Shown: positions 44,941 through 60,030 of the stretch, piece by piece
How positions within the stretch are numbered: the first letter of the stretch is position 1
Layout of the letters: every line of letters starts with the position of its first letter
Virus record (IMG/VR): IMGVR_UViG_3300020724_000005
Length of the DNA stretch: 64,000 bases
Reading direction: 5' to 3' (one strand)
From: a virus
Program-made: the position numbers and the translations under genes
The notes under the pieces: model-generated
The model's database searches: none
What the model saw: only the letters and a program-made list of their open reading frames with translations
Told to the model about the DNA's origin: nothing

Positions 44941-45104
44941 AAAATGAAGCTTTTAGATTATCCCCAGAGCTTCTCAACTGTGCTGGCATACGTTTTGGCT
45001 GCTCTGAATGAGCTCTCTTCCTCCAGAGGTTTAGTGGCGGGTAGTGTAGCTATACACCTTAACCAGACTTTCCTATCTTCGATCCCTTGGCCTTCGGGCT
45101 TTCG

Positions 45105-45179
45105 TGTACCATACAGGGTTTGAACCTGTGACCTACGGCTATAGGAGGCCGGCGCTCTAACCAACTGAGCTAATGGTAC
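45105..45179 (-). tRNA. atypical tRNA, 8-nt anticodon loop (Arg-CCT-like)
   Basis: good acceptor, D and T arms (ACAGG-TTCAAAC-CCTGT); anticodon stem CGGC/GCCG encloses CTCCTATA. Confidence 0.55.
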
Positions 45180-47052: not shown

Positions 47053-47298
47053 TTATCTGTATTTTCTTATGAGTTTAAAAAGCTCTCGTATGTCTGTGAA
47101 TTTCAATGTTTGTCCTGGCTTTATAGGAATGAACGCTATCGTAAATCCGTGGTTGCCGCAAAAGTAGTCTTCCTTCTTTATCCTGTTACCGTTCACGCTA
47201 TCAACATATATCCAAGGAAAATTGCCTGCGAGTTTTACTTCTATCCCGAGTCGTTTCATCCTGTCTATGAATACCGTCAATATGTCTCTCTGCTTCAT
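47053..47298 (-). CDS. hypothetical protein
   Basis: 81-aa ORF. Confidence 0.55.
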   Translation of the reverse strand: MKQRDILTVFIDRMKRLGIEVKLAGNFPWIYVDSVNGNRIKKEDYFCGNHGFTIAFIPIKPGQTLKFTDIRELFKLIRKYR

Positions 47299-47383
47299 TT
47301 CCTATTGCTGTTTGGTATGTTATAAAAGTAAACAAAATAATCGACATTTTAAAGCTTTTTGACGTACATTTGTTTTTTTACTG
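47299..47383 (-). promoter_or_regulatory. intergenic cassette C1
   Basis: sense box TACTTTTATAAC; opposite strand TCGACA(47341)-N18-TACATTTG(47365-47372). Confidence 0.5.
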
Positions 47384-47457
47384 TGCGCCCGGTAGGGTTC
47401 GAACCTACGACCCCCTGGTTAAAAGCCAGGTGCATCTACCAACTGAGCTACGAGCGC
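47384..47457 (-). tRNA. tRNA-Lys (TTT)
   Basis: stem CCTGG/CCAGG, loop CTTTTAA; imperfect D-stem. Confidence 0.85.
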
Positions 47458-47527
47458 ATTCTTTGAAGTTTGCCACCCGTGTTTCAGAGCAGCGCTATCG
47501 TTTTCGTTTCATTTTCGTGTTTTTGTG

Positions 47528-47599
47528 TGGTAATGAGGAATTCCGAGATCCTGCCTACGGTGCTTCAAACCGCCGCTCTGCCATCTGAGCTACATTACC
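47528..47599 (-). tRNA. tRNA-Phe (GAA)
   Basis: loop TTGAAGC; unusual T-loop CTCGGAA. Confidence 0.8.
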
Positions 47600-47604
47600 G
47601 TAAA

Positions 47605-47645
47605 TTAAAAAAGCCCTGAGAGTTTGTAGTTCCCAGGGCTTTTGA
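47605..47645 (-). terminator. intrinsic terminator
   Basis: AGCCCTG..CAGGGCT stem; minus strand followed by TTTTTT. Confidence 0.6.
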
Positions 47646-47663
47646 AGTATGATGTTTTATGTT

Positions 47664-47807
47664 TTATCTGCTGTCAGCATCATGTTGCCCTGGTTTGGAT
47701 CTAGGTTTGTCCTGCACGTTATTGATCGTACTAAAACAATAGCCTATCGAAGTCGCTTGTGTGCGGCCCGCTTGCCAAAGGTTTGTATGTATGTTACTGA
47801 GTTGCAT
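47664..47807 (-). CDS. hypothetical 47-aa protein
   Basis: MQLSNIHTNLWQAGRTQATSIGYCF...; below ORF-track cutoff. Confidence 0.3.
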   Translation of the reverse strand: MQLSNIHTNLWQAGRTQATSIGYCFSTINNVQDKPRSKPGQHDADSR

Positions 47808-47825
47808 TTTTATATAAAATCTGGA

Positions 47826-48035
47826 TTAGTTAGTTGTAGCTGCTGGAGCAAGGCTTGTTGCAAGTGCCTCAAGTGAAGTCGTTGCTGCTGTGATCGATTG
47901 AACCAAAGTATCTGCCTCTGCTGATGTAATTGCACCTGCTTGAGCTGTTTGGAATGTTTTGATTGCACTTTCAACTGTTTCTGCTGCTGTAGTAAGCGCT
48001 GCTGTTGCGTTCTGAAGATCTGTAAATGTTGCCAT
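47826..48035 (-). CDS. Ala/Thr-rich hypothetical protein
   Basis: start set to MATFTDLQNATAAL; low-complexity helical. Confidence 0.5.
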   Translation of the reverse strand: MATFTDLQNATAALTTAAETVESAIKTFQTAQAGAITSAEADTLVQSITAATTSLEALATSLAPAATTN

Positions 48036-48084
48036 AATTTTTTTTCTTTTTAGGAATTTTTTTAAAAAATACATGATGTATATC

Positions 48085-48092
48085 TATAAATA
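48085..48092 (-). promoter_or_regulatory. TATTTATA upstream box (class II)
   Basis: upstream of 47826 gene (10 nt from ATG 48074, 49 nt from ATG 48035). Confidence 0.3.
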
Positions 48093-48133
48093 TCTTATTA
48101 TTAATGTAAATCGAATTCTTGGGATAAAAAAGT

Positions 48134-48349
48134 TTATTTTTTGAGTGGGTATATCACCTCTGCGATCTTGCTCTCTGAACTTGATTTGACCTCGAAGTCC
48201 CCGATCTTGAGAGACTCAAAGTGTTCATACACCCTAGCTTCACTCTCCGTTACCGATTCGGCATCGACCAGGTATTTCACCGTCTCTTTCTTTGGCTTGT
48301 CTTTGTTAGGATCTATGGTCCTAAATTCTACTTTTACTTCAAAAAACAT
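48134..48349 (-). CDS. DUF4494-like small protein
   Basis: MFFEVKVEF...VKYLVDAESVTESEARVYE...GDFEVKS pattern recalled from Bacteroidota DUF4494. Confidence 0.45.
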   Translation of the reverse strand: MFFEVKVEFRTIDPNKDKPKKETVKYLVDAESVTESEARVYEHFESLKIGDFEVKSSSESKIAEVIYPLKK

Positions 48350-48407
48350 ATGCTTTTGGTTTTGATTATACTATGAATGTACGTCTTTTTGCCGATCTTG
48401 AGAACTT

Positions 48408-48899
48408 TTAGTCCTGAGTGACCGTATATTTTTTTCCTAGCTTTGTTATGGCCTCTACTGCCTCGTGCAGCTCGATCCTGAAGAACTCCCTGTTGTTGGC
48501 CACCCTGTACGAGTCCAAGTACTGGTGGATCTCTTCTTCTAAGAACTGGGCCTCATGACATTTGAAGCTGTACTCGACTTTGAAAGGAGACGCTACACCT
48601 GTCGCGTTCGATATCTGGTAGGCTCTCTCCTCAGGCGTGTTCTTCGTGTACCCTATCTTCAAGAGCCCTGGCATAGTTGGGTTTGAGAGCACGTATATCC
48701 AATACCTGCCTTCTCGACCTGGACCTTGGAACGCCTTCTTCCTGGCTGTGTAGTACTTGACCTCGTCCCACTGCCTGCCGTCTTCTCCTACTGGAAGAGG
48801 GGTCAAAGTATAATACTCCACAGGGTAGCCAAGCAAGTCATCCTCCTTTGAGATGTAGGAATCTGCCTCTTCTGTTGTTATACGTTGTATCTTTATCAT
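48408..48899 (-). CDS. T5orf172/MUG113 (GIY-YIG superfamily) domain protein
   Basis: YWIYVLSNPTMPGLLKIGYTKNTPEERAYQIS...PFKVEYSF...EEEIHQYL...REFF. Confidence 0.65.
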   Translation of the reverse strand: MIKIQRITTEEADSYISKEDDLLGYPVEYYTLTPLPVGEDGRQWDEVKYYTARKKAFQGPGREGRYWIYVLSNPTMPGLLKIGYTKNTPEERAYQISNATGVASPFKVEYSFKCHEAQFLEEEIHQYLDSYRVANNREFFRIELHEAVEAITKLGKKYTVTQD

Positions 48900-49060
48900 A
48901 TGATTTTTACGATTTGAAATCTAAGTTCATTGAATAAAATGTAATGAAAATCCTCTCTAAACATCTCATCAACTTCACTTTCGATATTAAGATCTAGCTC
49001 TACGGTTATCGATCTTCCTATGGCTTTAATTGCCAAATTAGTCATCCCTATCGTTTTCAT
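48896..49060 (-). CDS. hypothetical protein
   Basis: start set to MKTIGMTNLA adjacent to upstream stop. Confidence 0.45.
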   Translation of the reverse strand: MKTIGMTNLAIKAIGRSITVELDLNIESEVDEMFREDFHYILFNELRFQIVKII

Positions 49061-49269
49061 TTCCCATCGTCGATTATGAGGTATATACAAAGCATTATCA
49101 GAGGTATTCCCCACCAAGACAAGCAAACCATTACCAGGCACTCTATCAGCAGGCCGAACTTGAAAGCGCGGAGGGCAGTCGTACCGAAGTCAGAACCCAA
49201 GAACGCACACATCAGAGGAAACCAAAAGAGCAAAAGCAGCACAATCAAAATTCTCAGTAACTGTCTCAT
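49057..49269 (-). CDS. hypothetical multi-TM protein
   Basis: 70 aa, two or three hydrophobic helices. Confidence 0.5.
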   Translation of the reverse strand: MRQLLRILIVLLLLFWFPLMCAFLGSDFGTTALRAFKFGLLIECLVMVCLSWWGIPLIMLCIYLIIDDGK

Positions 49270-49270
49270 A

Positions 49271-49483
49271 CTAGCTCTCTAGTGTTACGAATGAACCAAA
49301 ATGCCTATCGAACACCGAGACAAGATTCTCATAGTCTCCACTTTTCATCTCTTCGATTATCGGTTTAGGATCCACGTCCAGCTGTTTGGCGAAATCAGTA
49401 GCGTACGCCATCAGAACATATGCGTTGCCATCAGGACCAGTAAGGTCAATGATCCTCTCCTTTTGTGTCTTTTTACGTATCAT
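49271..49483 (-). CDS. hypothetical 70-aa protein
   Basis: MIRKKTQKERIIDLTGPDGNAYVLMAYATDF...; ATG 11 nt after stop of xSQL gene. Confidence 0.5.
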   Translation of the reverse strand: MIRKKTQKERIIDLTGPDGNAYVLMAYATDFAKQLDVDPKPIIEEMKSGDYENLVSVFDRHFGSFVTLES

Positions 49484-49494
49484 ATTTTTTAATT

Positions 49495-49740
49495 TTAGAG
49501 CTGTGACCTGAGCTGTGACCTGAGCTGTGACCTGAGCTGTGACCTGATGAGCTGTGAACCGAGCTGTGACCTGAGCTGTGAACCGAGCTGTGAACCGAGC
49601 TGTGACCAGAGCTGTGAATAGAGCTGTAACCTGAGCTGTGACCAGAGCTGTGAACCGAGCTGTGAATAGAGCTGTGAATAGAGCTGTGAATTGAGCTGTG
49701 AATAGAGCTGTGAATTGAGCTGTGAATCGATCTGCTTCAT
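49495..49740 (-). CDS. xSQL tetrapeptide-repeat microprotein, copy 1
   Basis: MKQID then ~19 units xSQL (x = N,Y,G,W,R); ATG 3 nt after TACATTTA box; stop right after array. Confidence 0.5.
   Translation of the reverse strand: MKQIDSQLNSQLYSQLNSQLYSQLYSQLGSQLWSQLRLQLYSQLWSQLGSQLGSQLRSQLGSQLIRSQLRSQLRSQLRSQL
49498..49728 (-). repeat. 12-nt tandem array GAGCTGTGA+NNN
   Basis: about 19 head-to-tail units; 9 nt constant, last 3 nt variable; open in all frames. Confidence 0.95.
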
Positions 49741-49803
49741 ATCTAAATGTACGTCTTTTTTGTGAAAATTTTAAGCCATTCTCTAAAGTCCGGCCCAAAC
49801 AGC

Positions 49804-49977
49804 CTATATAAGTCTCATATCCGGATGTGTATAAGTAATCTCATACAGAGAGTCGATGATCCCATAGAAACCAAACTTCTCTAGCTCGTCGTCTAAAAAA
49901 GTATCGTGCGTGGGAGGGAATACGTGTGATATTGACTTATCGCCAAAGAGTTTCTGTATGCTCGTGTATGTTTTCAT
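49804..49977 (-). CDS. hypothetical 57-aa protein
   Basis: MKTYTSIQKLFGDKSISHVFPPTHDTFLDDELEKFGFYGIIDSLYEITYTHPDMRLI. Confidence 0.4.
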   Translation of the reverse strand: MKTYTSIQKLFGDKSISHVFPPTHDTFLDDELEKFGFYGIIDSLYEITYTHPDMRLI

Positions 49978-49978
49978 G

Positions 49979-50185
49979 TTACATCCATTTTGGTGGTTTT
50001 GGAAACTCGGTGCTATCGTCCAGCATCACTGCGATCAAGACGCCTAGCCAAGATAGTAAAAAGCTCCCTATGCATACCGCTACCCTGCCCCAATCAGGAG
50101 AATCTCCGAATTTTCTTATCCACGTTCTTCTCATCCTGCGGTAGGCCAGCACAGAGCCGGTCAATAAAATCATCAATGTTATCAT
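49979..50185 (-). CDS. hypothetical two-TM protein
   Basis: 68-aa ORF. Confidence 0.5.
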   Translation of the reverse strand: MITLMILLTGSVLAYRRMRRTWIRKFGDSPDWGRVAVCIGSFLLSWLGVLIAVMLDDSTEFPKPPKWM

Positions 50186-50190
50186 ATGTT

Positions 50191-50331
50191 TTAAATTAAT
50201 TGTGAAGTGATCATTTGGGACATATCGTAGTAAGGATCTAGGGCTATTATAATTGGAGATCTTCCTTCGAATATTAAAGACGCTTTGGGAAAAAGATCAG
50301 ATAAGTCCCAAAATAAGTCTGTCTTTTTCAT
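50191..50331 (-). CDS. hypothetical 46-aa protein
   Basis: track start 50376 is TTG; ATG 50331 overlaps upstream stop as ATGA. Confidence 0.4.
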   Translation of the reverse strand: MKKTDLFWDLSDLFPKASLIFEGRSPIIIALDPYYDMSQMITSQLI

Positions 50332-50507
50332 TTTCTTGAGTCTATGTTTAATGCGTTGACTATCTCCCAAAGGCAATCCCCAGTCGAGTTGAAGATGTTA
50401 TCCTCGGTATACCACGCTGCCTCTACTTCGTCTTGCCCATACATGTCTTCGAACGCCGCGTTGATCCTTGGCGGAACTGGGTCTATGAAATATTTTGTCT
50501 GTTTCAT
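50328..50507 (-). CDS. hypothetical 59-aa protein
   Basis: MKQTKYFIDPVPPRINAAFEDMYGQDEVEAAWYTEDNIFNSTGDCLWEIVNALNIDSRK; more protein-like than overlapping track ORF 50398..50625. Confidence 0.45.
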   Translation of the reverse strand: MKQTKYFIDPVPPRINAAFEDMYGQDEVEAAWYTEDNIFNSTGDCLWEIVNALNIDSRK

Positions 50508-50655
50508 ATATACATTTTTCTGGGATACTCAAATTTTCCTGGGGTTTGGAGTCGGCTTTTTTGCTTTTTTGCCCAAAACCCGGCGGCCGGATCTGCCCTT
50601 CGAGTAAGTATGCCCTGTTGTTCATATCTAAATGTACCTCTTTTTTTGGTCATCA

Positions 50656-50847
50656 TCACTCTTCTTCTTCAAAGTAGGGCTTTACCCACGGCGTCTCTCT
50701 AAGCATCCTTACATACTCATGTTGATCTTCTCTTGGAACACAGCCAAGCAGCGCTCTGGTCTGCTCATTGTCGTGCAATATAAACCCTCCGGTCATAAGG
50801 ATCTGGCCGTCTTTTTCTATAACTGCGAAGCTATTCTTCTTATTCAT
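50656..50847 (-). CDS. hypothetical protein
   Basis: 63-aa ORF. Confidence 0.5.
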   Translation of the reverse strand: MNKKNSFAVIEKDGQILMTGGFILHDNEQTRALLGCVPREDQHEYVRMLRETPWVKPYFEEEE

Positions 50848-50973
50848 CCTGTTAGCGAGCAGCGATGCCTCTTCGTATCCATTAGAAGAGGGGGGTGACG
50901 TGTAGTACTTTCATATGTTGTATATATTTTTTTGTCAGACGTTGAAAAATTCCCGTGTGCGTAAGTTTACCTT

Positions 50974-51112
50974 AGGCGGGGCCCCCCCTGCTAGCAGGCC
51001 CCTAGCACCATAAATGTGAGCCTTTGGCAGAATGCCAGCATCATGCTAGTGCGCCGCCTCCAAGCTGCCAGCTCAGAAGATCTCCGATACAAAAAAGGTA
51101 CCGGCCCCGCCT
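50974..51112 (-). ncRNA. GC-rich structured element (candidate ncRNA; strand uncertain)
   Basis: AGGCGGGGCC (50974) pairs with GGCCCCGCCT (51103); competing partner GCGCCGCCTCC (51051); internal palindromes CCTGCTAGCAGG, GGCAGAATGCC; no ORF. Confidence 0.35.
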
Positions 51113-51117
51113 CCTAG

Positions 51118-51381
51118 CTAGACCATCGCGCCCGTGTAGTACAGGTGCTCTTTTTCTATCATGTGTGTCGTCACGTGGCACTCCAGCTCTCTGAGCACTT
51201 GAGAGCTCAAGATCTCCTCTAGGGTGTCTACCAACACGTAGTCATCGAACCGCTGGCCTCCGTGCTCTTTCTTTATGCCTATCGAGTAGGTGATCTTGTC
51301 TTCTGTGGCTATCGCCGCCTGGTAGCTTACGTTCTTGCTCAGCCAATAGAGAACTGAGTCTCTGTCCATTATGCGTGTCAT
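51118..51381 (-). CDS. hypothetical protein
   Basis: start set to MTRIMDRDSVLYW (ATG 51381) just after cassette C2. Confidence 0.5.
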   Translation of the reverse strand: MTRIMDRDSVLYWLSKNVSYQAAIATEDKITYSIGIKKEHGGQRFDDYVLVDTLEEILSSQVLRELECHVTTHMIEKEHLYYTGAMV

Positions 51382-51458
51382 GCTGTTGTTGTTTGGTATG
51401 ATGTAAAAGTACGCAATACTTTTTACATTTTTCATTTTTTGGTCGTATATTTGTTTTT
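51382..51458 (-). promoter_or_regulatory. intergenic cassette C2
   Basis: sense box TACTTTTACATCATACC; opposite strand TTTACA(51422)-N18-TATATTTG(51446-51453). Confidence 0.5.
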
Positions 51459-51602
51459 TTAACGCATCACCTCTGACTCTATCCTCTTGGCGATCTCGTC
51501 TAGGTCGTCTGCTGAGACCTCTAGCCAGTATGTGCCAGTGGCGTACTCGTTGAATATCTTCTTTATCTGGTCCTGTATGGACTCGCTGTTCTGTGCGTTC
51601 AT
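51459..51602 (-). CDS. hypothetical 47-aa protein (paralog of 53782..53940)
   Basis: MNAQNSESIQDQIKKIFNEYATGTYWLEVSADDLDEIAKRIESEVMR. Confidence 0.5.
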   Translation of the reverse strand: MNAQNSESIQDQIKKIFNEYATGTYWLEVSADDLDEIAKRIESEVMR

Positions 51603-51686
51603 GCTGATCTGTGTTTGTGAGAGCCCAGGCCATCATCTGACTAATTCCTTGCCGCGCTCTTGGCCAGGTAGCCTGGGCTCCCATGT

Positions 51687-51932
51687 CTACATATGGCTCA
51701 GCGTACTACTGAGCTGTGAATCGAGCTGTGACCTGAGCTGTGAATTGAGCTGTGACCAGAGCTGTGAATCGAGCTGTGAATCGAGCTGTGACCAGAGCTG
51801 TGAATCGAGCTGTGACCTGAGCTGTAAATTGAGCTGTGAATAGAGCTGTTCCCTGAGCTGTGACCTGAGCTGTGAACCGATCTGTGACCTGAGCTGTGAA
51901 TTGAGCTGTGACCTTACGTCTATCTGTTTCAT
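51687..51932 (-). CDS. xSQL tetrapeptide-repeat microprotein, copy 2
   Basis: MKQIDVR then ~17 xSQL units (x = N,R,G,Y,D,W,E). Confidence 0.5.
   Translation of the reverse strand: MKQIDVRSQLNSQLRSQIGSQLRSQLREQLYSQLNLQLRSQLDSQLWSQLDSQLDSQLWSQLNSQLRSQLDSQLSSTLSHM
51711..51914 (-). repeat. 12-nt tandem array GAGCTGTGA+NNN
   Basis: same unit as 49498..49728. Confidence 0.95.
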
Positions 51933-52012
51933 GGTATTATGTTTTGGTAGTTAAATAAGAAAGTAGCGGACGTATTAGCCAGCTCCTCTCTGTGTATCAA
52001 ACAACAACTCTC

Positions 52013-53119
52013 TTATTTGTATTTTGCTATCAGGATCTCCAGCTCTTCTAGGAACTGCGGTAGTCTGTCTGTAGGGATCTGCTCTGTCTGTGCGAACCTC
52101 CATTTGAACATGTGCACCTCATCTCCTTTCTCATTGATCACGTGATAGTACCCGTCCTCTTCTCCTACGATCTGATACTCTTTGCCGTTAGTCAAATGCC
52201 TGTAAGATCCAGCCTCTTGGCATGTCATCATCCTTTTGCGTGGCTTCTCTGCCTCTTCTGCGTATGGTTCAAAGCAATCGTATGGTGTATGGTAGACGGT
52301 ATTCTCCAGATCAAAGAACCATTCTCCTCCTTCGGCAATTCTATTACTACTGAAGCCTGTTATCGTGTAGATCTCTCCTACTTGCAGGTTCGCTTCTTTG
52401 ATATAATATGCTGCACTCTTATAGATCATTGAGTCTGTCTTGACCAGCTTCACTTTCATTCCAGGTTTGTATCCCAGCCTCTTGATCTCCGCAGTGTGGT
52501 CTGTCTTTGGCTCTTCTGGTTCTATCTTCTTACGATCTCCTCTTTTGCCCCTATATGGTAGGTTCATGAAAGTGTCTTCTCGTGGATCTACTAATGTCCA
52601 AGGGTGACCATATTCGTTGATGATCCTGGTCGCGTATCCATCGCTGTCTGTCTCAAGGACTTCGTACTCGTGGCCTTCTATGTAGTATCTTGAATTGGTC
52701 TTTGTGCACCTGACGTATAGATTCCCTTCTAAGGAATTATTCCCGGCTTTGTACTCTTCGAGTCTCCTTTTCAGATCGTTATTATACGCAGGATCCTTCT
52801 TGACGTACTCTCTTCCGTTGTAATATCCATCTTTATATCCCATTAGCGTTTCTAGCGCAAACAGGGACATAAAGTCTGGTACCCGATGTTCTACTCGCCA
52901 AAGTCCTCTCTTGACATTGGTGATGAACCCAGCACGTCTGAAATACGACTGGTAGGCACGTACGCGGTACCACTGTCCGTACCATACTCTGTGTTGACCT
53001 TTTTCTCGAGTCATATCATAGAGTGCATTCTTAAAGTCCTCGCTCGTGTATGTTTCTCCTGGTTTGTAGGCGTTGATGAAGTTGACAACTGCAAAATAGA
53101 TCGTTCCTTGCTTTATCAT
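52013..53119 (-). CDS. hypothetical protein with internal beta-rich repeats
   Basis: 368 aa; three related segments (YIEGHEYEVLETDSDGY, LQVGEIYTITGF, LTNGKEYQIVGEEDGYY). Confidence 0.65.
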   Translation of the reverse strand: MIKQGTIYFAVVNFINAYKPGETYTSEDFKNALYDMTREKGQHRVWYGQWYRVRAYQSYFRRAGFITNVKRGLWRVEHRVPDFMSLFALETLMGYKDGYYNGREYVKKDPAYNNDLKRRLEEYKAGNNSLEGNLYVRCTKTNSRYYIEGHEYEVLETDSDGYATRIINEYGHPWTLVDPREDTFMNLPYRGKRGDRKKIEPEEPKTDHTAEIKRLGYKPGMKVKLVKTDSMIYKSAAYYIKEANLQVGEIYTITGFSSNRIAEGGEWFFDLENTVYHTPYDCFEPYAEEAEKPRKRMMTCQEAGSYRHLTNGKEYQIVGEEDGYYHVINEKGDEVHMFKWRFAQTEQIPTDRLPQFLEELEILIAKYK

Positions 53120-53202
53120 AATATTTTGATTGTTTGTTACTTAGTAAATGTACGTGAAATAATCGACTTAAAAAAGCTTTTTGTCAGGTATTTGTTTTCA
53201 TA
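53120..53202 (-). promoter_or_regulatory. intergenic cassette C3
   Basis: sense box GTACATTTAC; opposite strand TCGACT(53163)-N18-GGTATTTG(53187-53194). Confidence 0.5.
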
Positions 53203-53703
53203 CTATGACATATATCCCCGACCGTCTTCGTAGAATTCCCACCCGTTATCTATAATATGATCGGATATCGCCTCTTCAGAGCAAAGATATTCGTATTCAT
53301 TCTCTAACATATTAAGGTATTCTCTACTGAGGTCTTCGAGATACGCTTCTTCCAATTCTTCCAGTTCTGCTTCAGTCTTGGCTGTGTCTTCTTGGCGCTC
53401 CAGTTCATCCAGATCGCTCAGAAACTTCTTGGCGATGGAATATGTGGCGCAATGCTCACCGTGCTCAGAAACGACCTTGAGAGCGCTAGATTTGGCTGAC
53501 GTAGTGAAATTTGCCTTAATGTATGGAGGATATAGATCGAATTCTTCTATATCAAGGCCTGCTGTCCCCTTGGCGTCTTCTTTGACTGTATCTGACCACC
53601 AACCGTATCCTGTCAGTAGTTCTGAGTTGTCGGCGAGGACTTTGGCCTGTGCCTTTTCTGATAGCTCTTCAAATTTGCAAATGTTCTGTGTTACTGTACG
53701 CAT
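53203..53703 (-). CDS. hypothetical acidic protein
   Basis: start set to MRTVTQNICKFEELSEKAQAKV; ...GYGWWSD...; ends NGWEFYEDGRGYMS. Confidence 0.55.
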   Translation of the reverse strand: MRTVTQNICKFEELSEKAQAKVLADNSELLTGYGWWSDTVKEDAKGTAGLDIEEFDLYPPYIKANFTTSAKSSALKVVSEHGEHCATYSIAKKFLSDLDELERQEDTAKTEAELEELEEAYLEDLSREYLNMLENEYEYLCSEEAISDHIIDNGWEFYEDGRGYMS

Positions 53704-53781
53704 GTTGTTTGTTGTTTGGTATGTTATAAAAGTACGTGAAATAATTGACACTAGAAAGTTTCTGGACGTATATTTGTTTTC
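53704..53781 (-). promoter_or_regulatory. intergenic cassette C4
   Basis: sense box GTACTTTTATAAC; opposite strand TTGACA(53745)-N18-TATATTTG(53769-53776). Confidence 0.55.
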
Positions 53782-53940
53782 TTACTGTGTGATTATCTCG
53801 TCCACAATTCTTTTAGCAAACTCATCCAAGTCGTCTGCTGATATTTCTAACCAATACCCACCAGTCGCATACTCATTAAAGATTTTCTTTATCTGGTCCT
53901 GTATGTTTGCTTTCTGAGCTTCGTTGTTTGCTGTTGACAT
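53782..53940 (-). CDS. hypothetical 52-aa protein (paralog of 51459..51602)
   Basis: MSTANNEAQKANIQDQIKKIFNEYATGGYWLEISADDLDEFAKRIVDEIITQ. Confidence 0.5.
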   Translation of the reverse strand: MSTANNEAQKANIQDQIKKIFNEYATGGYWLEISADDLDEFAKRIVDEIITQ

Positions 53941-54025
53941 TGTTGTTGTTTTTAGTACTAGATAAAAGTAATGAATTAAATTGACACTTGAAAGTTATTT
54001 CTCAAGTATTTGTTTTTCTACTATG
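53941..54025 (-). promoter_or_regulatory. intergenic cassette C5
   Basis: sense box TTACTTTTATCTAG; opposite strand TTGACA(53981)-N18-AGTATTTG(54005-54012), pointing into ORF-free DNA. Confidence 0.5.
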
Positions 54026-54343
54026 AGACATAACCACTATATCCAGCGAATAGCTGGAGGACCAGATAATCAAAGTTGTGAGCTTTTTTACATATAACAG
54101 ATCAAGCTCACTATCCCATAATACAAACCCATATCCTAAGGGCAGACTGTCTGTTGCTATTTATTTCGCTGTCGATAGTTGTCAGGTTAGGACATTGCTA
54201 CCACTTTTAGACGTCTGATGTTTTCTTGGTGTAAAGTTAAAATCAACCACCAAGCTCTATTGTAACTGAGCGGATATTTCATTAGTGATATCTCTGTAAT
54301 AACACAAGGAATGAACCCGATTAAGACCTTATAGGTAGAGACA

Positions 54344-54374
54344 TAAAAAAAGCACCTCCTTTTGGGAGATGCTT
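54344..54374 (-). terminator. intrinsic terminator
   Basis: AGCA-C-CTCC/GGAG-A-TGCT stem; minus strand followed by TTTTTTT. Confidence 0.5.
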
Positions 54375-54407
54375 CAGTATCTGGTCCGGGTTAATAACCC
54401 CTAATGT

Positions 54408-54492
54408 GGAAAGACCCAGAATATTTTAAAGTAATGTATTATTGCGAAAGAATGAAGTCTTCGTAATGAGTGTGTAATTCTTAGGTCTTTCC
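54408..54492 (-). other. long imperfect hairpin in 3' UTR
   Basis: GGAAAGACC..AGAAT paired with ATTCT..GGTCTTTCC (14 bp) around ~55 nt. Confidence 0.4.
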
Positions 54493-54602
54493 AGGACGGT
54501 ATAATTATGTTCTCTGCTTACTGTAATAAATATACACACTTTCTCTAAGATAGAGCTTTGATGTATAAAAGTTTAGATATTATCCAAGTCTTTCTGCAAT
54601 AA

Positions 54603-54764
54603 TTATATAGACCAAGACCCAGACCCAGACTCAGACCAAGACCCAGACCCAGACCTAGACCCAGACCTAGACCTAGACCAAGACCTAGACCAAGACCCAG
54701 ACCAAGACCAAGACCCAGACCAAGACCTAGACCCAGACTTCTTTTTAAATTTAATACAGCTCAT
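54603..54764 (-). CDS. S-x dipeptide-repeat microprotein
   Basis: MSCIKFKKKSGSRSWSGSWSWSGSWSRSWSRSRSGSRSGSGSWSESGSGSWSI; ATG 2 nt after upstream stop. Confidence 0.45.
   Translation of the reverse strand: MSCIKFKKKSGSRSWSGSWSWSGSWSRSWSRSRSGSRSGSGSWSESGSGSWSI
54610..54739 (-). repeat. 6-nt tandem array GACC(C/A/T)A
   Basis: about 21 units; minus sense TCT-NGG with N = G/A/T. Confidence 0.95.
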
Positions 54765-54766
54765 AA

Positions 54767-55039
54767 TTATAGTTTAGAAGATTTACCAAAAGACTCTATA
54801 GCAGAAAGTTGGACATAATATTCGTCTCCTACTTTTTGAGCATCTTTGTATTTCTTATCTGTAAGTGGGCCTGTTTCGTACACTATATGGGCATTCTCCA
54901 GTTTAATACAAGTGTCGTTAACTCCTACCAGCTTTCCCCCATAGAAGTAGTTAGAACACATTATTAATACTTCTTCTCCGAGTAATGACAAAAGACCTTC
55001 ATTCTCTACTTCTACTACTTTAATTGGTTGCATTTTCAT
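54767..55039 (-). CDS. hypothetical small beta-barrel protein (Sm-like pattern, weak)
   Basis: LLSLLGEEVLIMCSNYFYGGKLVGVNDTCIKLENAHIVYE resembles Sm/LSm motif spacing. Confidence 0.5.
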   Translation of the reverse strand: MKMQPIKVVEVENEGLLSLLGEEVLIMCSNYFYGGKLVGVNDTCIKLENAHIVYETGPLTDKKYKDAQKVGDEYYVQLSAIESFGKSSKL

Positions 55040-55063
55040 ATTCTGTTGTTTTTAGTTATTTAT

Positions 55064-55657
55064 TTATATAGCCTTTAGTTGATACTTCTTTCCATCTATC
55101 TCTACTACTTTACCCTCGCAGCAATCTTCTTTTGGTAATCCGGTCTCAATTAACTCACCGTAACACACTTGACCTAGTACTAATTTGCCTACTTTTATTT
55201 GCATCTCTTCTTTAGTAGGTATTTTCCAAGTAGTTAATCCGGCAAATATTCTTAGTTTACTTGATAGCTCTCCTTTACAAATTATACCCCAACCAGCTTC
55301 AATACCCCAACCAGCTTCAATACCCCAACCAGCTTTAATACCCCAACCAGCTTCAATACCCAAACCAGCTTTAATACCCCAACCAGCTTTAATACCCCAA
55401 CCAGCTTTAATACCACAACCAGCTTTAATACCCCCACCAGCTTTAATACCCCCACTAGCTTCAATACCATCGCCAGCTTCAATACCACTACCAGCTTTAA
55501 AGTATATATTACCGGAAGCAGTTAAGTGGCCTTTGAATTTTACTGTTCCGAGGTCTTCTTCTGCTTCTATATGTCCTTGGTAGTTACTTAGGTCTTCTTT
55601 ACCTACGTAGTAATTGTCTTTGTCTAAATGCTCTTTTTTAATTAGAAATGTGTTCAT
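55064..55657 (-). CDS. hexapeptide-repeat (beta-helix-like) protein
   Basis: 197 aa; eleven GI(K/E)AGx units flanked by non-repetitive N- and C-domains. Confidence 0.65.
   Translation of the reverse strand: MNTFLIKKEHLDKDNYYVGKEDLSNYQGHIEAEEDLGTVKFKGHLTASGNIYFKAGSGIEAGDGIEASGGIKAGGGIKAGCGIKAGWGIKAGWGIKAGLGIEAGWGIKAGWGIEAGWGIEAGWGIICKGELSSKLRIFAGLTTWKIPTKEEMQIKVGKLVLGQVCYGELIETGLPKEDCCEGKVVEIDGKKYQLKAI
55284..55500 (-). repeat. 18-nt tandem array
   Basis: ATACCCCAACCAGCTT(C/T)A units, ~12 copies, encode GI(K/E)AG(W/G/L/C/S/D). Confidence 0.9.
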
Positions 55658-55740
55658 ATTGCTTTGTTTGTTTGGTATGATGTAAAAGTAAGTAAAAAGA
55701 TCGACACTAAAAAGAAATAACTCAGGTATTTGTTTTCTTC
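55658..55740 (-). promoter_or_regulatory. intergenic cassette C6
   Basis: sense box TACTTTTACATCATACC; opposite strand TCGACA(55701)-N18-GGTATTTG(55725-55732). Confidence 0.5.
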
Positions 55741-55760
55741 ATATGATCCTCTTCACATAA

Positions 55761-55790
55761 GAAAAAAGCCGGGGGTGGAAACCCCCGGCT
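55761..55790 (-). terminator. intrinsic terminator
   Basis: 9-bp GC stem AGCCGGGGG/CCCCCGGCT; minus strand followed by TTTTTT. Confidence 0.7.
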
Positions 55791-55807
55791 CATATACCAA
55801 CTAACAA

Positions 55808-56638
55808 CTATGCTGTTTCATACTTCTCTGCCAGAGTCCAGAGCTTCTGGTTGATCTCCAGGTCAGTGATCGGGTTCTTTATAGGACGTGCGACTCTCTC
55901 GTTGAGGCTGAATCCTCCTTTGATGATCCCTTCTTGGCACACGTTGTAGGTGACCCAAAGGCTTTTGCCCCTGTCTTCAGTGCGGCGAGGCTGCAGAAGG
56001 TCTACGATCTCGTACTGCTCAGGCTGTCGGTCTGTGTTCATGCGCAGAGCAAGAGCTTCTGTAGCGAACTGGTAGCGCTGGCGGTCTGTCATCTCTATCA
56101 TGTTCCAGCGGTTGATCTTGGTCACTGCCTTCTCCATGTCCACGACCTTCTGGTCAACGATCATCTTCACCTCTTCTTGGTTGTATTTTATGTGGCGCTC
56201 TTTCATGCTGCCGAAGTCCTGTGTCTTGATGATCAACCCGTTAGAGCACACCAGCCTGAAGATGCCGGCTTCTATCTGAAGTGGGCGGCAGCCGTTGCTG
56301 TTGTTGATCACGACCATTGTAGGACGGCCTTCTATTCCTCCGCGTCCGTCTTTCATGTAGAGCTCTTCGTTCTGGAACTCCATGATGTGCGTACCAAACG
56401 TGGTGTAGATCTCGTTTCCTTTGCGGCTCTTTGACTGCTTGGCGTTGGTGAGCTTCCACCCCTGCCCGTCCAGGTGCTCGATCAGGTCGATAGAGCTTAC
56501 GAACTTGTAGTTGCCGCTCAGGCGAGATGCTGGTCCAGGCGCGAATATGCCTGGAGCTTTCTGCTTTGCTGTCTCTAGAGACATGGGAGCGATCATGTTG
56601 TTCTTGTTGTTGCTTGCGAGCATTACTTCTGTCTGCAT
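55808..56638 (-). CDS. DUF932-family protein
   Basis: 276 aa; FRLVCSNGLI core typical of DUF932 (phage/plasmid-like). Confidence 0.6.
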   Translation of the reverse strand: MQTEVMLASNNKNNMIAPMSLETAKQKAPGIFAPGPASRLSGNYKFVSSIDLIEHLDGQGWKLTNAKQSKSRKGNEIYTTFGTHIMEFQNEELYMKDGRGGIEGRPTMVVINNSNGCRPLQIEAGIFRLVCSNGLIIKTQDFGSMKERHIKYNQEEVKMIVDQKVVDMEKAVTKINRWNMIEMTDRQRYQFATEALALRMNTDRQPEQYEIVDLLQPRRTEDRGKSLWVTYNVCQEGIIKGGFSLNERVARPIKNPITDLEINQKLWTLAEKYETA

Positions 56639-56718
56639 AACGTTTGTTTTTAGTTGTTTAGTGCGATGTAAAAGTACAAAATAAAGTTGAAAGTAGGCAA
56701 CGTTCGATCATATATTTG
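56639..56718 (-). promoter_or_regulatory. intergenic cassette C7
   Basis: sense box GTACTTTTACATCGCAC; opposite strand TTGAAA(56687)-N18-TATATTTG(56711-56718). Confidence 0.5.
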
Positions 56719-57258
56719 TTATCCTAATAGCCAGCTCAGCTTTCTTCTAGACTCAGCAACGTGCCATTTGACTGTGTTCTCTACCGTGTCTAGCATGTCT
56801 CCGATCTCGCTGTACTTGTAGCCGATAGCAGCAAGCCTCATGACCTTCTCAGAAGACCTTGGCAGCAGAGACATTGCGGTCTCAAACTGCTTGGCTGCCT
56901 CTGACCTTCCTGCTTCATTGTAGGCCACAGACCTGTACATGCTCTTGATCTCTGCAAGCACTGACCTGTCGTTGGACACATCTCTTCTTTTGATGGCCTT
57001 GGCTGTAGTTATCGCGTTGTTCTTGATCACTGTCCTCATCCAGCCCTCGAACGATCCTATGCCTTGGTATGACTGTATCTTCTGGAACACCTTCAAGAAC
57101 CCATCGTTGATCACCTCTTCAAGGTCTCTGCTGTCTTTGAAGTACTTATAGAGCATGCGATGCATGCCTGGATAGTAGTGCTTATACACCTCTTCTTGGC
57201 ATTTCCTGTCGTTCTCTCTGCATCCGGCTATGAGCTCGTGTATCTGTGTGTGGTCCAT
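56719..57258 (-). CDS. ECF-type sigma-70 family factor
   Basis: region 2 (DLEEVINDGFLKVFQKIQSY..FEGWMRTVIKNNAI) and region 4 HTH (YKYSEIGDMLDTVENTVKWHVAESRRKL). Confidence 0.75.
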   Translation of the reverse strand: MDHTQIHELIAGCRENDRKCQEEVYKHYYPGMHRMLYKYFKDSRDLEEVINDGFLKVFQKIQSYQGIGSFEGWMRTVIKNNAITTAKAIKRRDVSNDRSVLAEIKSMYRSVAYNEAGRSEAAKQFETAMSLLPRSSEKVMRLAAIGYKYSEIGDMLDTVENTVKWHVAESRRKLSWLLG

Positions 57259-57332
57259 GTCATTGTTTTGTAGAGTGTAAAGATAAGCAAAATACCTGGT
57301 ACTTTAAACTAATTTCCCAGGTATTTGTTTTG
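57259..57332 (-). promoter_or_regulatory. intergenic cassette C8
   Basis: hairpin AATACCTGG/CCAGGTATT; opposite strand CTGGTA(57296)-N18-GGTATTTG(57320-57327). Confidence 0.45.
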
Positions 57333-57575
57333 CTAATGTGTGGCAGGTGAAGCTTCTTCTGTGCCCATGAACCCAGCAATGAGATCAAGCGGGGTCTCTG
57401 GATACAAGATCTCATAGACGCTTGGAGCAAAGGTCTTCAGAGTGGTCTTCTTCCCTTCTTGCCATCCGCCCATGTTGCATGCAGATATGATGTCGTAGAT
57501 CTCGAATATCTCGCTGAGGTTGAGCTTGTCTCCTACCAGAGCGTGAACTTTCTTCATTGCTTCTGTTGTTGTCAT
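57333..57575 (-). CDS. hypothetical protein
   Basis: 80-aa ORF. Confidence 0.5.
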   Translation of the reverse strand: MTTTEAMKKVHALVGDKLNLSEIFEIYDIISACNMGGWQEGKKTTLKTFAPSVYEILYPETPLDLIAGFMGTEEASPATH

Positions 57576-57659
57576 AACCGTTAGTTGTTTAGTGTGATGT
57601 AAAAGTAGGAAAAATACCTGACACTTAAAACAAAAGCATCAGGTATTTGTTTTCATAAT
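57576..57659 (-). promoter_or_regulatory. intergenic cassette C9
   Basis: hairpin AATACCTGA/TCAGGTATT; sense box CTACTTTTACATCACAC; opposite strand CTGACA(57618)-N18-GGTATTTG(57642-57649). Confidence 0.5.
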
Positions 57660-57899
57660 TTATTCTTCTCCCATATACATCGCCATATCGTCCTCATCGG
57701 CATAGAATATCTCGGCCAACATATAACGGAGATCTTCATCTGTGCCTGTAAACTGTACCACCGGATTTCCCCCACCTGGTCCACACCAATTTAAAACGTT
57801 CAGTAATATGTTTCTCTTCTCCAAAAGACCCCAGAACTTTTGATCTTCTTTTTCGTTGCCTGTGAATGGAATGCAATCCATCTCGATCGTTTTTGTCAT
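57660..57899 (-). CDS. hypothetical protein
   Basis: track start 57926 is TTG; first ATG 57899 (MTKTIEMD) 24 nt after GTACATTTG box. Confidence 0.5.
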   Translation of the reverse strand: MTKTIEMDCIPFTGNEKEDQKFWGLLEKRNILLNVLNWCGPGGGNPVVQFTGTDEDLRYMLAEIFYADEDDMAMYMGEE

Positions 57900-57995
57900 A
57901 TCTTTTAGTTGTTTAGTGTAGAGCAAATGTACGACAAAAATCTGAAAGCAGGTAACTTTTTATCACATTTATTTCATCATCACGCATCAGCAAAA

Positions 57996-58068
57996 CAAAT
58001 ATATGAAAAATAAGTTCCAAGTATCAAAACTTTGTCGTACTTTTACATCACACTAAAAAACAAACAAC
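57996..58068. promoter_or_regulatory. divergent cassette C11
   Basis: plus sense TACTTTTACATCACAC before ATG 58069; minus strand TTGATA(58027-58022)-N18-TATATTTG(58003-57996) points at 57660..57899. Confidence 0.5.
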
Positions 58069-58299
58069 ATGGCAACAAAGACACTGACAAACAAACAGGC
58101 GCTTACGAAGATGATCAATTCCTTAGATCCTATCCAGTTGGGAATACTTCGAGAGAGGATACTCGCGATGACAGAGAACATACTCGAGAACGAACAGGAC
58201 ATACGTAAGGTGATGGAGGCCGACGGCAGGAGGTCGATGATACATCCAGATTATTATTTCCAGACCATCGAAGCCATCAGGATCACAATGGAATATTAA
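58069..58299 (+). CDS. hypothetical protein
   Basis: 76-aa ORF, only plus-strand gene of this block. Confidence 0.5.
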   Translation: MATKTLTNKQALTKMINSLDPIQLGILRERILAMTENILENEQDIRKVMEADGRRSMIHPDYYFQTIEAIRITMEY

Positions 58300-58360
58300 G
58301 AAAACAAATACCCGACAAATAAGTTTCAAGTGTCGGGTATTTTTCCTACTTTTACGTCAG
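58300..58360 (+). promoter_or_regulatory. cassette C12 (plus orientation) with terminator-like hairpin
   Basis: ATACCCGACA..TGTCGGGTAT stem + TTTTT, then TACTTTTACGTC; minus strand CCGACA-N18-GGTATTTG (58336-58305). Confidence 0.45.
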
Positions 58361-58361
58361 A

Positions 58362-58447
58362 TCAAGCATCGCACGCCAGCGGCCACTGAAAGGTTCGGAG
58401 TTACTTGCCGAAGATGGGTATACTCCGTCCTACGCGACACTTTTTCT
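58362..58447 (+). ncRNA. candidate small RNA
   Basis: GC-rich ORF-free stretch after C12 box; stem CGGAGT..ACTCCG; ends at CTTTTTCTC. Confidence 0.25.
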
Positions 58448-58502
58448 CTATCGTATTAAAGAGATCCTCATACAAGGATTCTCATATGTATTCTTTTTCA
58501 CA

Positions 58503-58745
58503 TCAGTCCAAGATCTCTATGTCTGCAGTCTCCTGGGCACACCTCCACCCATCTGCCTCTAGATCGTAGAACGTCACGACTCCTTTTTTCGGGATCCCGT
58601 AGTAGTCTCTTTTTCCTTGCGCGGGTAGCATGTCTGGGTTGGTCGTGCCTACAGCCACGCGAACAGTCCCGTCCTTTTTAGTGAACTGGAAGCGCACCTT
58701 TCCTGACTTCAGCCGGTCTACCAGTTTTTTTGTTGTGTTTTCCAT
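58503..58745 (-). CDS. DUF2693-like small protein
   Basis: start set to MENTTKKLV; VRFQFTKKDGTVRVAVGT pattern. Confidence 0.45.
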   Translation of the reverse strand: MENTTKKLVDRLKSGKVRFQFTKKDGTVRVAVGTTNPDMLPAQGKRDYYGIPKKGVVTFYDLEADGWRCAQETADIEILD

Positions 58746-58812
58746 AGAGTAAAAGTACAAAATCTTTTTGAATCTAGGAAACTTTTTGTCAGATATTTGT
58801 TTTCTTAATTTA
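58746..58812 (-). promoter_or_regulatory. intergenic cassette C10
   Basis: sense box GTACTTTTACTC; opposite strand TTGAAT(58768)-N18-GATATTTG(58792-58799). Confidence 0.45.
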
Positions 58813-59003
58813 TCTTGGCTTCCAAAACGATCATGACATTATCGATCAAGTTCTCTATATCTTTCATCTCTCTATCGAAGAGTGATCTTGCATTTGGAGA
58901 TACCTTTAACATTAATTGTTCTTTATGAGATCCTGATAAAGGAAAGAGCCACAAAAATATCTTTTTCAATTTACATACCTTTTTTGTTTTCTGGATACCT
59001 TTT

Positions 59004-59393
59004 TTATTTTTGGGTGCAGTTTATCCATCTTCCGTCAAAATTGAATTTGAAGCTTCCCAGGTAGCTGTATCTGTTACCCCACTCCTGTGGGGAGATCAAG
59101 CTCAAAAAATTCCCGCTCTCAGATCCGTACAGGTGATACACTGATCCTGCCTTTGGTTGAAAGTTATACTTGGAAGAGTACACAAGCTCGTTGTCTCTCA
59201 CCTCGTCTAAAAGCTGCTGCCACTCTCTGGACAGGTGGTCGAACTTGGAAGCGTAGTGAGATCTGACCATACTCGTGTTCTCTTGGTTGAACACCGTTAA
59301 GTCTTCTGGCTTGAAGTTGGGAGATCCCACCTCTGTGGGATAGGTCTTAGAGATCCTGTTTTCGACGTAACTCAGAGGCTTGTTGTCGTCCAT
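59004..59393 (-). CDS. DUF2452-like protein
   Basis: 129 aa; YNFQPKAGSVYHLY...FLSLISPQEW pattern recalled from Bacteroidota. Confidence 0.5.
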   Translation of the reverse strand: MDDNKPLSYVENRISKTYPTEVGSPNFKPEDLTVFNQENTSMVRSHYASKFDHLSREWQQLLDEVRDNELVYSSKYNFQPKAGSVYHLYGSESGNFLSLISPQEWGNRYSYLGSFKFNFDGRWINCTQK

Positions 59394-59411
59394 TTTTCAT
59401 TTTGATGTAAA

Positions 59412-59419
59412 TATAAATA
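59412..59419 (-). promoter_or_regulatory. TATTTATA upstream box (class II)
   Basis: 18 nt upstream of ATG 59393. Confidence 0.35.
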
Positions 59420-59448
59420 CCTTTTTTGATCTAAGTACTTTTTTCGTT

Positions 59449-59613
59449 TCAAGTCCAAAGCTTCTGCCTATCTATGGCTGTATCTACTGCTGTCAAGCTC
59501 TCTGCGCCCAAAGAGATCCAGTATACTATTCTAGCGATGTCTGGGTGGTCAAGCTGTGCTCCTATGCTTGAGTTCATAACTCCCATCCACGTTATGCTGT
59601 GCAAGATATTCAT
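59449..59613 (-). CDS. hypothetical 54-aa protein
   Basis: MNILHSITWMGVMNSSIGAQLDHPDIARIVYWISLGAESLTAVDTAIDRQKLWT; ATG 5 nt after exact TACATTTG. Confidence 0.4.
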   Translation of the reverse strand: MNILHSITWMGVMNSSIGAQLDHPDIARIVYWISLGAESLTAVDTAIDRQKLWT

Positions 59614-60030
59614 ATGGACAAATGTACTACAAGTCTGCTTGCATATGAAGCCATTCTTTTTTGTTGCTTGACATTGCAGATCGTTTTTTGTTGTCAGAAA
59701 TACTTTTTTGATCTAAGGAAATATAAGTCCATGGTGGTATGCATTAGCATAAAATATATATGGTGTACTACGGAGATGGATTTTTCTTCGCAAGAGAATG
59801 CTCCGTATTATACCTTTTTTATTTACTGGGTATCTCTTCCTACTTTTGGTAGCTTTTAATACCTTTTACTGCTTTGAAATACCTTTTTTATTATAAGTAC
59901 CACTTTCTCTTGTTGGTACCACACTTAGAAATATCTTCATAGTCGCAGAGCTCGATCTCTCTCTCATCCTATCGTGTCAGCCTCAGCGTGTCTCCTACCC
60001 TGTACAGATCACACCGTCCGTATACTCCTC

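Follow-up and report, generated by a model that had tools for sequence, protein, structure and literature searches.

The stretch of DNA analyzed here, 64,000 nucleotides (nt) from an uncultured freshwater phage (IMGVR_UViG_3300020724_000005), is referred to throughout as the window. Between 47.3 and 58.8 kb it contains an intergenic cassette of about 90 nt, found before small genes in 12 full copies and 1 degenerate copy. The full copies were numbered C1 to C12 and the 13th is treated separately; all of the work described is sequence analysis. The window is part of a myophage genome with baseplate wedge, SbcC-like and primase genes, and almost all genes from 31.9 kb to its end are on the minus strand.

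The 12 full copies, all present where an original prediction had placed them, align without any gap over about 90 nt when read in the sense of the downstream gene. Their consensus is ..TA(A/G)GAAAA-CAAATAnn-tgAnAAAnAAGTTTCnAG-TGTCAA-ttatttcnng-TACTTTTAC-AYCAyACyAAACAAC...ATG. The TACTTTTAC end is toward the ATG in every copy without exception, including the two on the opposite strand. Stop codons that end the upstream open reading frames (ORFs) occupy fixed alignment columns (6-11), and a conserved A-rich leader and the ATG follow the gene-proximal box. With up to two mismatches allowed, the sense pattern AAAACAAATA-N36-TAYHTTTAC had 12 matches, against 0.00 expected from shuffles, and the nhmmer E-values of the copies ranged from 1e-13 to 1e-20. 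The cassette repeat is real and non-random. The looser antisense pattern of the original prediction gave 19 matches against 10.65 expected, 11 of which were inside cassettes. That prediction had described a distal pair of boxes separated by exactly 18 nt. The spacing is indeed exact in 12 of 12 copies, but the two boxes are not independent elements at a set distance; the constant spacing follows from conservation of the entire cassette as a single gap-free repeat. Two other distances were corrected: the hexamer is exactly 10 nt from the proximal box rather than 10-15 nt, and the distance from this box to the ATG varies from 4 to 30 nt rather than from 3 to 25 nt.

Starting from the left on the minus strand, C1 (47298-47385) lies between a tRNA-Lys gene (47383-47457) and the gene at 47053-47298, has no hairpin and has TACATTTG as its antisense 8-mer. 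C2 (51381-51465), also without a hairpin, sits in a spurious ORF of 188 amino acids (aa); the real upstream gene is a 47-aa ORF (51459-51602) that ends at 51459, and the downstream gene starts at about 51400. C3 (53124-53207), with the proximal box TACATTTAC, is upstream of a 368-aa gene (52013-53119). C4 (53704-53789) is upstream of the gene at 53203-53703, and its distal box, ATACGTCC, is one breakpoint of a 1.8-kb segment missing in a related contig. C5 (53945-54025) is upstream of a 52-aa gene (53782-53940), with about 580 nt of ORF-free DNA before it. C6 (55660-55745) is upstream of a 197-aa gene (55064-55657) and directly 3' of a strong GC-rich terminator, and C7 (56646-56729) is upstream of a DUF932 gene (55808-56638). 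C8 (57258-57340), with the proximal box TATCTTTAC, precedes a gene for a sigma factor like those of the extracytoplasmic function (ECF) group (56719-57258), and C9 (57575-57661) precedes an 80-aa gene (57333-57575).

The 13th copy, which was found by a profile search, is more degenerate (57898-57973, minus strand). It is upstream of the gene at 57660-57899, has a canonical TACATTTG box at 57924-57931 and heads the leftward gene run at a divergent junction. C11 (57983-58069, plus strand) stands back to back with it, upstream of the plus-strand gene at 58069-58299. C12 (58293-58375, plus strand) lies in the convergent gap after that gene, with no ORF downstream. C10 (58734-58810, minus strand) is upstream of a WYL_2 gene (58503-58745), whose ATG is 4 nt past the proximal box, and a leaderless mRNA is predicted.

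Pattern and protein searches of IMG/VR returned a small clade of relatives with the same cassette. The largest is G005, a complete genome of 158 kb with terminal repeats and about 15 copies near both ends. G003 (75.6 kb, with the near-identical G002 and G006) has 21 copies, G001 (20 kb) about 12, G004 (7.1 kb, matching the window at 99.4% identity along most of its length) 3 and G007 (4.5 kb) 2. In G005 (IMGVR_UViG_3300035703_000016, 158,434 bp) the cassettes cluster toward the genome ends, no more than about 7 kb from one and about 18 kb from the other. At the terminal repeat the two clusters would join into one unbroken array. From the window, G003, G001, G005, G006 and G007, which represent five or six related phages, 58 unique copies were aligned to the profile. 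Their mean pairwise identity was about 0.64 between genomes and 0.66-0.70 within a genome, which suggests that the copies are old and that the shared positions mostly reflect constraint. Recent duplication or gene conversion was rejected as the source of their likeness, since identity within genomes is close to that between genomes.

No near-identical DNA was found in cultured phages. The nearest cultured relative is the myophage vB_FspM_immuto of Flavobacterium (39% primase identity), which lacks the cassette (3 pattern matches vs 1 control match). A tight pattern run over bacterial genomes gave 16 scattered single matches and no host or prophage. A loose pattern, AAAACAAATA-N34-39-TAYHTTTAC, used to scan the collection gave mostly single chance matches among the matches listed, and tighter patterns were needed. 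No Rfam family matches any cassette, and in the literature searched neither such cassettes nor TAnnTTTA promoters had been described for Bacteroidota phages. Only 9 of 79 genes have a Shine-Dalgarno motif, and in the 25 nt that precede the starts A is common and G scarce. Rare Shine-Dalgarno motifs, A-rich leaders and the relationship to immuto make a Bacteroidota host a reasonable frame for the analysis.

The gene-proximal box

The best-conserved element of the cassette is the gene-proximal box, TAnnTTT(A/G)C, which occurs in 57 of the 58 aligned copies. Its invariant bases are T59, A60 and T63-65. The two "nn" positions vary, almost never to G, and A66 and C67 are conserved at about 90%. Promoters of Flavobacterium johnsoniae have the box TAHHTTTG, with near-invariant T-12, A-11, T-8, T-7, T-6 and G-5 and a transcription start 4-5 nt downstream (PMC6847099). 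All five of the bases at -12, -11 and -8 to -6 are found in 57 of 58 sense boxes. The near-invariant G-5 is not: at position -5, 53 of 58 copies have A and only 4 of 58 have G, with the conserved C next to it. These data agree with the original prediction that TAC(T/A)TTT(A/G) is the likely sense promoter.

The sequence upstream of the box points the same way. Compared with AT-rich motifs near -18 and -28, the -33 element of F. johnsoniae was described as "much less evident" (PMC6847099). Likewise, 59 putative promoters from a Flavobacteriaceae genome showed no preferred TTG spacing; they were T-rich at -35 to -33 and -28 to -26 and A-rich near -31/-30 and at -24 to -22. In the column consensus, the sense cassette has matching T-rich and A-rich stretches at those same positions and is AT-rich near -18. 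A position weight matrix (PWM) was built from the 48 nt upstream of the 59 boxes, the genome used not being that of the actual host. On it the sense cassettes scored +2.84, compared to a training mean of 2.83, -1.32 for the antisense orientation and -3.0 (standard deviation 3.2) for random window positions.

Some features of the gene arrangement are also consistent with a promoter in each cassette. The distance from box to ATG is not constant and ranges from 3 to 30 nt; where it is 3-5 nt, leaderless mRNAs would result. The terminator directly before C6 is a canonical intrinsic one (55766-55791, minus strand; an 11-bp stem with 8 GC pairs, then a T-run) that ends the DUF932 gene, so the gene at 55657 needs its own promoter. 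Over the whole window, beyond the cassettes as well, TAHHTTTA was found in sense orientation within 45 nt upstream of ORFs 23 times vs 3.2 expected, an enrichment of about 7-fold.

The distal element, AAAA-n-AAATA, is nearly invariant in all copies, whether or not they form a hairpin. If transcription starts 4-5 nt past the box, it would lie at about -58 to -49, and a second A-run is at -41 to -37. Both are positions of UP-element subsites in E. coli. With low confidence, given that position and A-richness are its basis, we regard the distal element as UP-like; alternatively, it may be the binding site of a regulator.

Two further sequence elements were noticed near TAnnTTTA boxes outside the array. 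At three promoters on the minus strand (window 63246, 61934 and 34341), TAGAyTTCT is about 17 nt before the box, and these may form a second promoter class. To the right of the array (window 58950-59900, read on the minus strand), AAAAAAGGTAT has at least six intergenic occurrences, one of which forms a putative TCAA-N10-TATATTTAC promoter of the gene at 59004-59393.

Hairpin copies and gene shuffling

Pairing of columns 18-29 with columns 43-54 is bimodal: 11 of 58 copies have a stem of 10-12 bp, and the rest have runs of no more than five pairs. The stems consist of AAATACCTGAGA/TCTCAGGTATTT and variants. Three of the 13 window copies belong to this class, namely C8 (stem at about 57292-57324), C9 (stem-loop 57612-57648) and C12 (stem-loop 58306-58342), and these are the three copies in which a hairpin had originally been noticed. 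In these copies 99% of cells are paired, and both sides have changed in 7 of the 12 pairs (e.g. GAATATGCGGGA/TCTCGCATATTC), a level reached by 0 of 500 shuffles. Since pairing was the criterion by which the copies were chosen, evidence free of circularity comes from the bimodality and from the variety of pair types. The minimum free energies are -15.6, -17.9 and -17.3 kcal/mol for C8, C9 and C12, with z-scores of -2.4, -4.1 and -3.0, respectively. The 35 non-hairpin copies showed no covariation (54.3% paired vs 54.9% in shuffles), and they folded no better than shuffles on either strand.

With GAAAAC upstream and TTTTYC downstream, the stems have the shape of a bidirectional terminator, and the hairpin subclass looks like one. 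C12 lies where a bidirectional terminator would be useful. The idea of a combined terminator-promoter module is supported for a subset of copies, the hairpin being present in 11 of 58. Directly after the -7 box of C12 is an ORF-free segment of about 85 nt (window 58356-58445, plus strand) that ends in a T-run. It is kept in G003 and G006, is predicted to fold into two hairpins and matches no Rfam family. It is a possible small RNA, for which three sequences do not suffice to judge covariation.

Comparison of the relatives revealed rearrangements that break at cassettes. G004 follows the window from 54195 to 53764 with 87% identity and resumes at 51975 with 99.4% identity. The C4 distal box contains the 8-nt repeat, ATACGTCC, in which the junction lies, and a two-gene module that includes C3 (51975-53764, minus strand; 1.8 kb) is missing. 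In the window, the order along the gene strand is the 80-aa gene, the sigma gene, the DUF932 gene and the 197-aa gene. In G003 it is the sigma gene, the 80-aa gene and the 197-aa gene, with the DUF932 gene 5 kb further on. Compared with G003 and G001, the window has the module of the 58069 gene in the opposite orientation, and the blocks of homology among the three stop at cassettes. Because every gene carries the same flank of about 90 nt, the copies offer homology for the deletion, inversion and reordering of genes.

A probable composite cassette and its alternatives

We consider it probable that the cassette is a portable composite, read toward the downstream gene and made up of a stop codon, an optional terminator, a sense promoter and a leader, like the promoter-early stem-loop (PeSL) cassettes of T4-type phages. 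The unit would begin with the stop codon or codons of the upstream ORF (TAGTAAG or ATTAAG). It would continue with the UP-like AAAA-n-AAATA, the T-rich stretch at -35 to -33, TnTCAA at -28 to -23 with an AT-rich spacer after it, and the -7 box TAnnTTTAC. An A/C-rich leader of about 22 nt without a Shine-Dalgarno motif would then lead to the ATG of the downstream gene. We infer that the RNA polymerase of the Bacteroidota host, possibly modified by the phage, starts 4-5 nt past the box. In about one in five copies, the distal element and the hexamer region appear to have evolved into the 10-12 bp hairpin flanked by A/T runs, which would terminate transcription arriving from either side.

Several observations weigh against this reading. 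An A replaces the near-invariant host G-5 in most sense boxes, and recognition by unmodified host sigma-A is thus not assured. No known role accounts for the invariant AAAA-n-AAATA or for TnTCAA. The hairpins have AT-rich stems and loops of 13-17 nt, and a consensus terminator scan flagged none of them. The evidence for rearrangement at cassettes consists of a few events. Finally, five window copies contain a perfect TAnnTTTG on the antisense strand, and incidental antisense starts may occur there.

Those five copies, out of 13 in the window, also count in favor of the original proposal that the cassette is a designed bidirectional promoter. In that proposal the distal TTGACA-N18-TATATTTG fires on the opposite strand and produces antisense RNA to the 3' end of each upstream early gene. 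TTGACA is the -35 hexamer of E. coli. TTGACA-like hexamers do occur at N18, and TAnnTTTG is the host-type box, from which the sense box deviates at -5. The antisense 8-mers start at 47365, 51446, 53187, 53769, 54005, 55725, 56711, 57320, 57642 and 58792 on the plus strand and occupy 58305-58312 and 57996-58003 on the minus strand. Only 5 of these 12 have the TA of TAnnTTTG; the others read GG, AG or GA there. Across the 58 copies the full antisense box is found in just 12, T-12 and A-11 in 14 and G-5 in 32; invariant bases fall on the "nn" positions of the consensus, and variable ones where invariance is due. The perfect antisense boxes of the window are mostly absent from orthologues, as seen for C1 (in G003), C4 (in G005), C7 (in G003 and G005) and C11 (in G003 and G001), although the G001 orthologue of C7 has one. 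The antisense upstream context scores near random, flavobacterial promoters have no sharp TTG at -33 (PMC6847099 and the 59 promoters used here), and no plus-strand terminators or conserved units are found downstream. The antisense reading arises from the A-rich upstream element read in reverse. The antisense-RNA idea, which gave the finding its striking look, is not supported, and a promoter of this design has a very slim chance of being correct. An even slimmer chance is given to a mainly RNA-level or operator role, either as a processing or translational-control site in a polycistronic early mRNA or as half-sites (AAATAnnTGA ... TCAnnTATTT) for a dimeric repressor. The consensus has dyad symmetry (columns 18-27 vs 45-54, 54% paired in register vs about 40% when slid), and the leader ACACTAAACAAC is conserved beyond plain A-richness. 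However, the variable distance from box to ATG is unlike a ribosome-binding signal, the non-hairpin copies lack covariation and have no stable fold on either strand, and the terminator before C6 demands re-initiation.

The alternative closest to the composite promoter is that the sense promoter is read only after a phage factor, whether an activator, a sigma-appropriation factor or a phage sigma, has redirected the polymerase. TAnnTTTAC, TnTCAA at about -26 and AAAA-n-AAATA would then work together like T4 middle promoters with their MotA box, and the part of true immediate-early promoter would fall to the TAnnTTTG copy that heads the operon. A-5 and C-4 are found in about 90% of the 58 copies, and TnTCAA is 10 nt from the box, a MotA-box-like geometry. 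In addition, the window, G003 and the cultured immuto (MW353175) show sense-wise enrichment of TAHHTTTA, and not of TAHHTTTG, upstream of their ORFs. The reverse is true of the Flavobacteriaceae metagenome-assembled genome RFPP01 (G008), where the G-type was observed 42 times vs 7.5 expected and the A-type was no better than the antisense control; this comparison genome is not the actual host. G005 was ambiguous by this crude enrichment measure. In the window (57924-57931, minus strand), G003 (about 30110-30187, minus strand) and G001 (16469-16548, plus strand), the few G-type copies are found where the main operon begins at a divergent junction, and these are candidate immediate-early promoters. 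The A-type promoters may therefore need a phage factor. On the other hand, no protein emerged as a candidate activator, and the upstream context has a score similar to that of ordinary host promoters. The ECF-like sigma gene (Sigma70_r2, E = 3e-13, with a weak r4) is among the cassette-flanked genes. Homologues occur in G003 and G001; in G005 there is just a weak r2 match elsewhere in the genome, and in immuto none. As a general reader of TAnnTTTAC this sigma factor was rejected, since its own gene is behind a cassette and G005 and immuto use the box without a clear homologue. Overall, strict dependence on a phage factor seems unlikely.

A broader scheme is only slightly less doubtful. In Flavobacterium-type myophages, most genes might be run from the phages' own promoter dialect, TAnnTTTAC with TnTCAA and AAAA-n-AAATA at fixed positions, with the host-type TAnnTTTG only heading the early operon. 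A phage factor would retarget the polymerase from G-type to A-type boxes as a temporal switch. If this were true, it would be a G-to-A switching route not yet described in Bacteroidota, and the unmodified host polymerase might then see no sites in the array other than the occasional perfect G-type boxes on the antisense strand.

Two tRNA calls were also noted. ARAGORN reported 21 tRNA/tmRNA genes and missed one further tRNA, which was found with Rfam at 47528-47599 (minus strand). Its call at 45104-45179 (minus strand) has an odd 4-base anticodon, "ccta", and is a possible CTA suppressor.

Relation to known promoter cassettes

The closest known counterparts of the composite cassette are the PeSL cassettes (Arbiol et al. 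2010, PMC2839356; Comeau et al. 2014, PMC4122927). Both are conserved intergenic units of about 100 bp, repeated many times among small variable ORFan genes, that begin at the upstream stop codon in AT-rich DNA and end with the start signals of the next gene. Both hold a promoter and a stem-loop, here predicted from sequence. Indels and rearrangements between relatives break in units, as described for PeSLs in the same two studies. The two are unrelated in sequence, and the host phylum here is Bacteroidota. The cassette has a TAnnTTTAC -7 box instead of sigma-70 -35/-10 elements and an A-rich leader without a Shine-Dalgarno motif. Its stem-loop is AT-rich, symmetric and present in about 20% of copies. 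A PeSL-type cassette would also be expected to have a strong host-type early promoter that is active in reporters and a stem-loop that ends or attenuates transcription, and to give rise to excised mini-circles when copies recombine. It is best read as a new sequence family, in a new host phylum, of an already known PeSL-like kind.

Other systems share single features with it. Compared to Bacteroidota sigma-A promoters (sigma-ABfr; -33 TTTG / -7 TAnnTTTG), the cassette has the same invariant T-12, A-11 and T-8 to T-6, scarcely any G at -10/-9, T-rich stretches at -35 to -33 and near -28, A-rich sequence at -24 to -22, AT-rich sequence near -18 and short or absent leaders. It differs in the A-5 and the conserved C, and G-5 boxes are not enriched upstream of the phage genes. 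T4 middle promoters combine a MotA box at -30 with a host -10, and their sigma factor is appropriated by MotA and AsiA (PMC2988021). The cassette resembles them in lacking a canonical -35/-33 and in the placement of TnTCAA, about 10-12 bp before a host-like element. No homologue of MotA or AsiA was found, no search aimed at them having been made, and dependence of the cassette on a phage factor is speculative. In halovirus HF2, repeated intergenic sequences serve as promoters before many genes; this is an archaeal virus with promoters of the TATA/BRE type and no reported terminator hairpin class (PMC8707807).

The cassette would extend to Bacteroidota phages the idea, known from PeSLs, that accessory genes travel with their own stop, terminator, promoter and leader, in a phylum that departs from the E. 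coli model in its signals for transcription and translation. With 58 natural variants, the compact, conserved 55-nt element is a candidate portable promoter for Flavobacterium. The contrast between TAnnTTTA in the phages and TAnnTTTG in the host is a testable lead on how phages may control the unusual sigma-A polymerase of their hosts.

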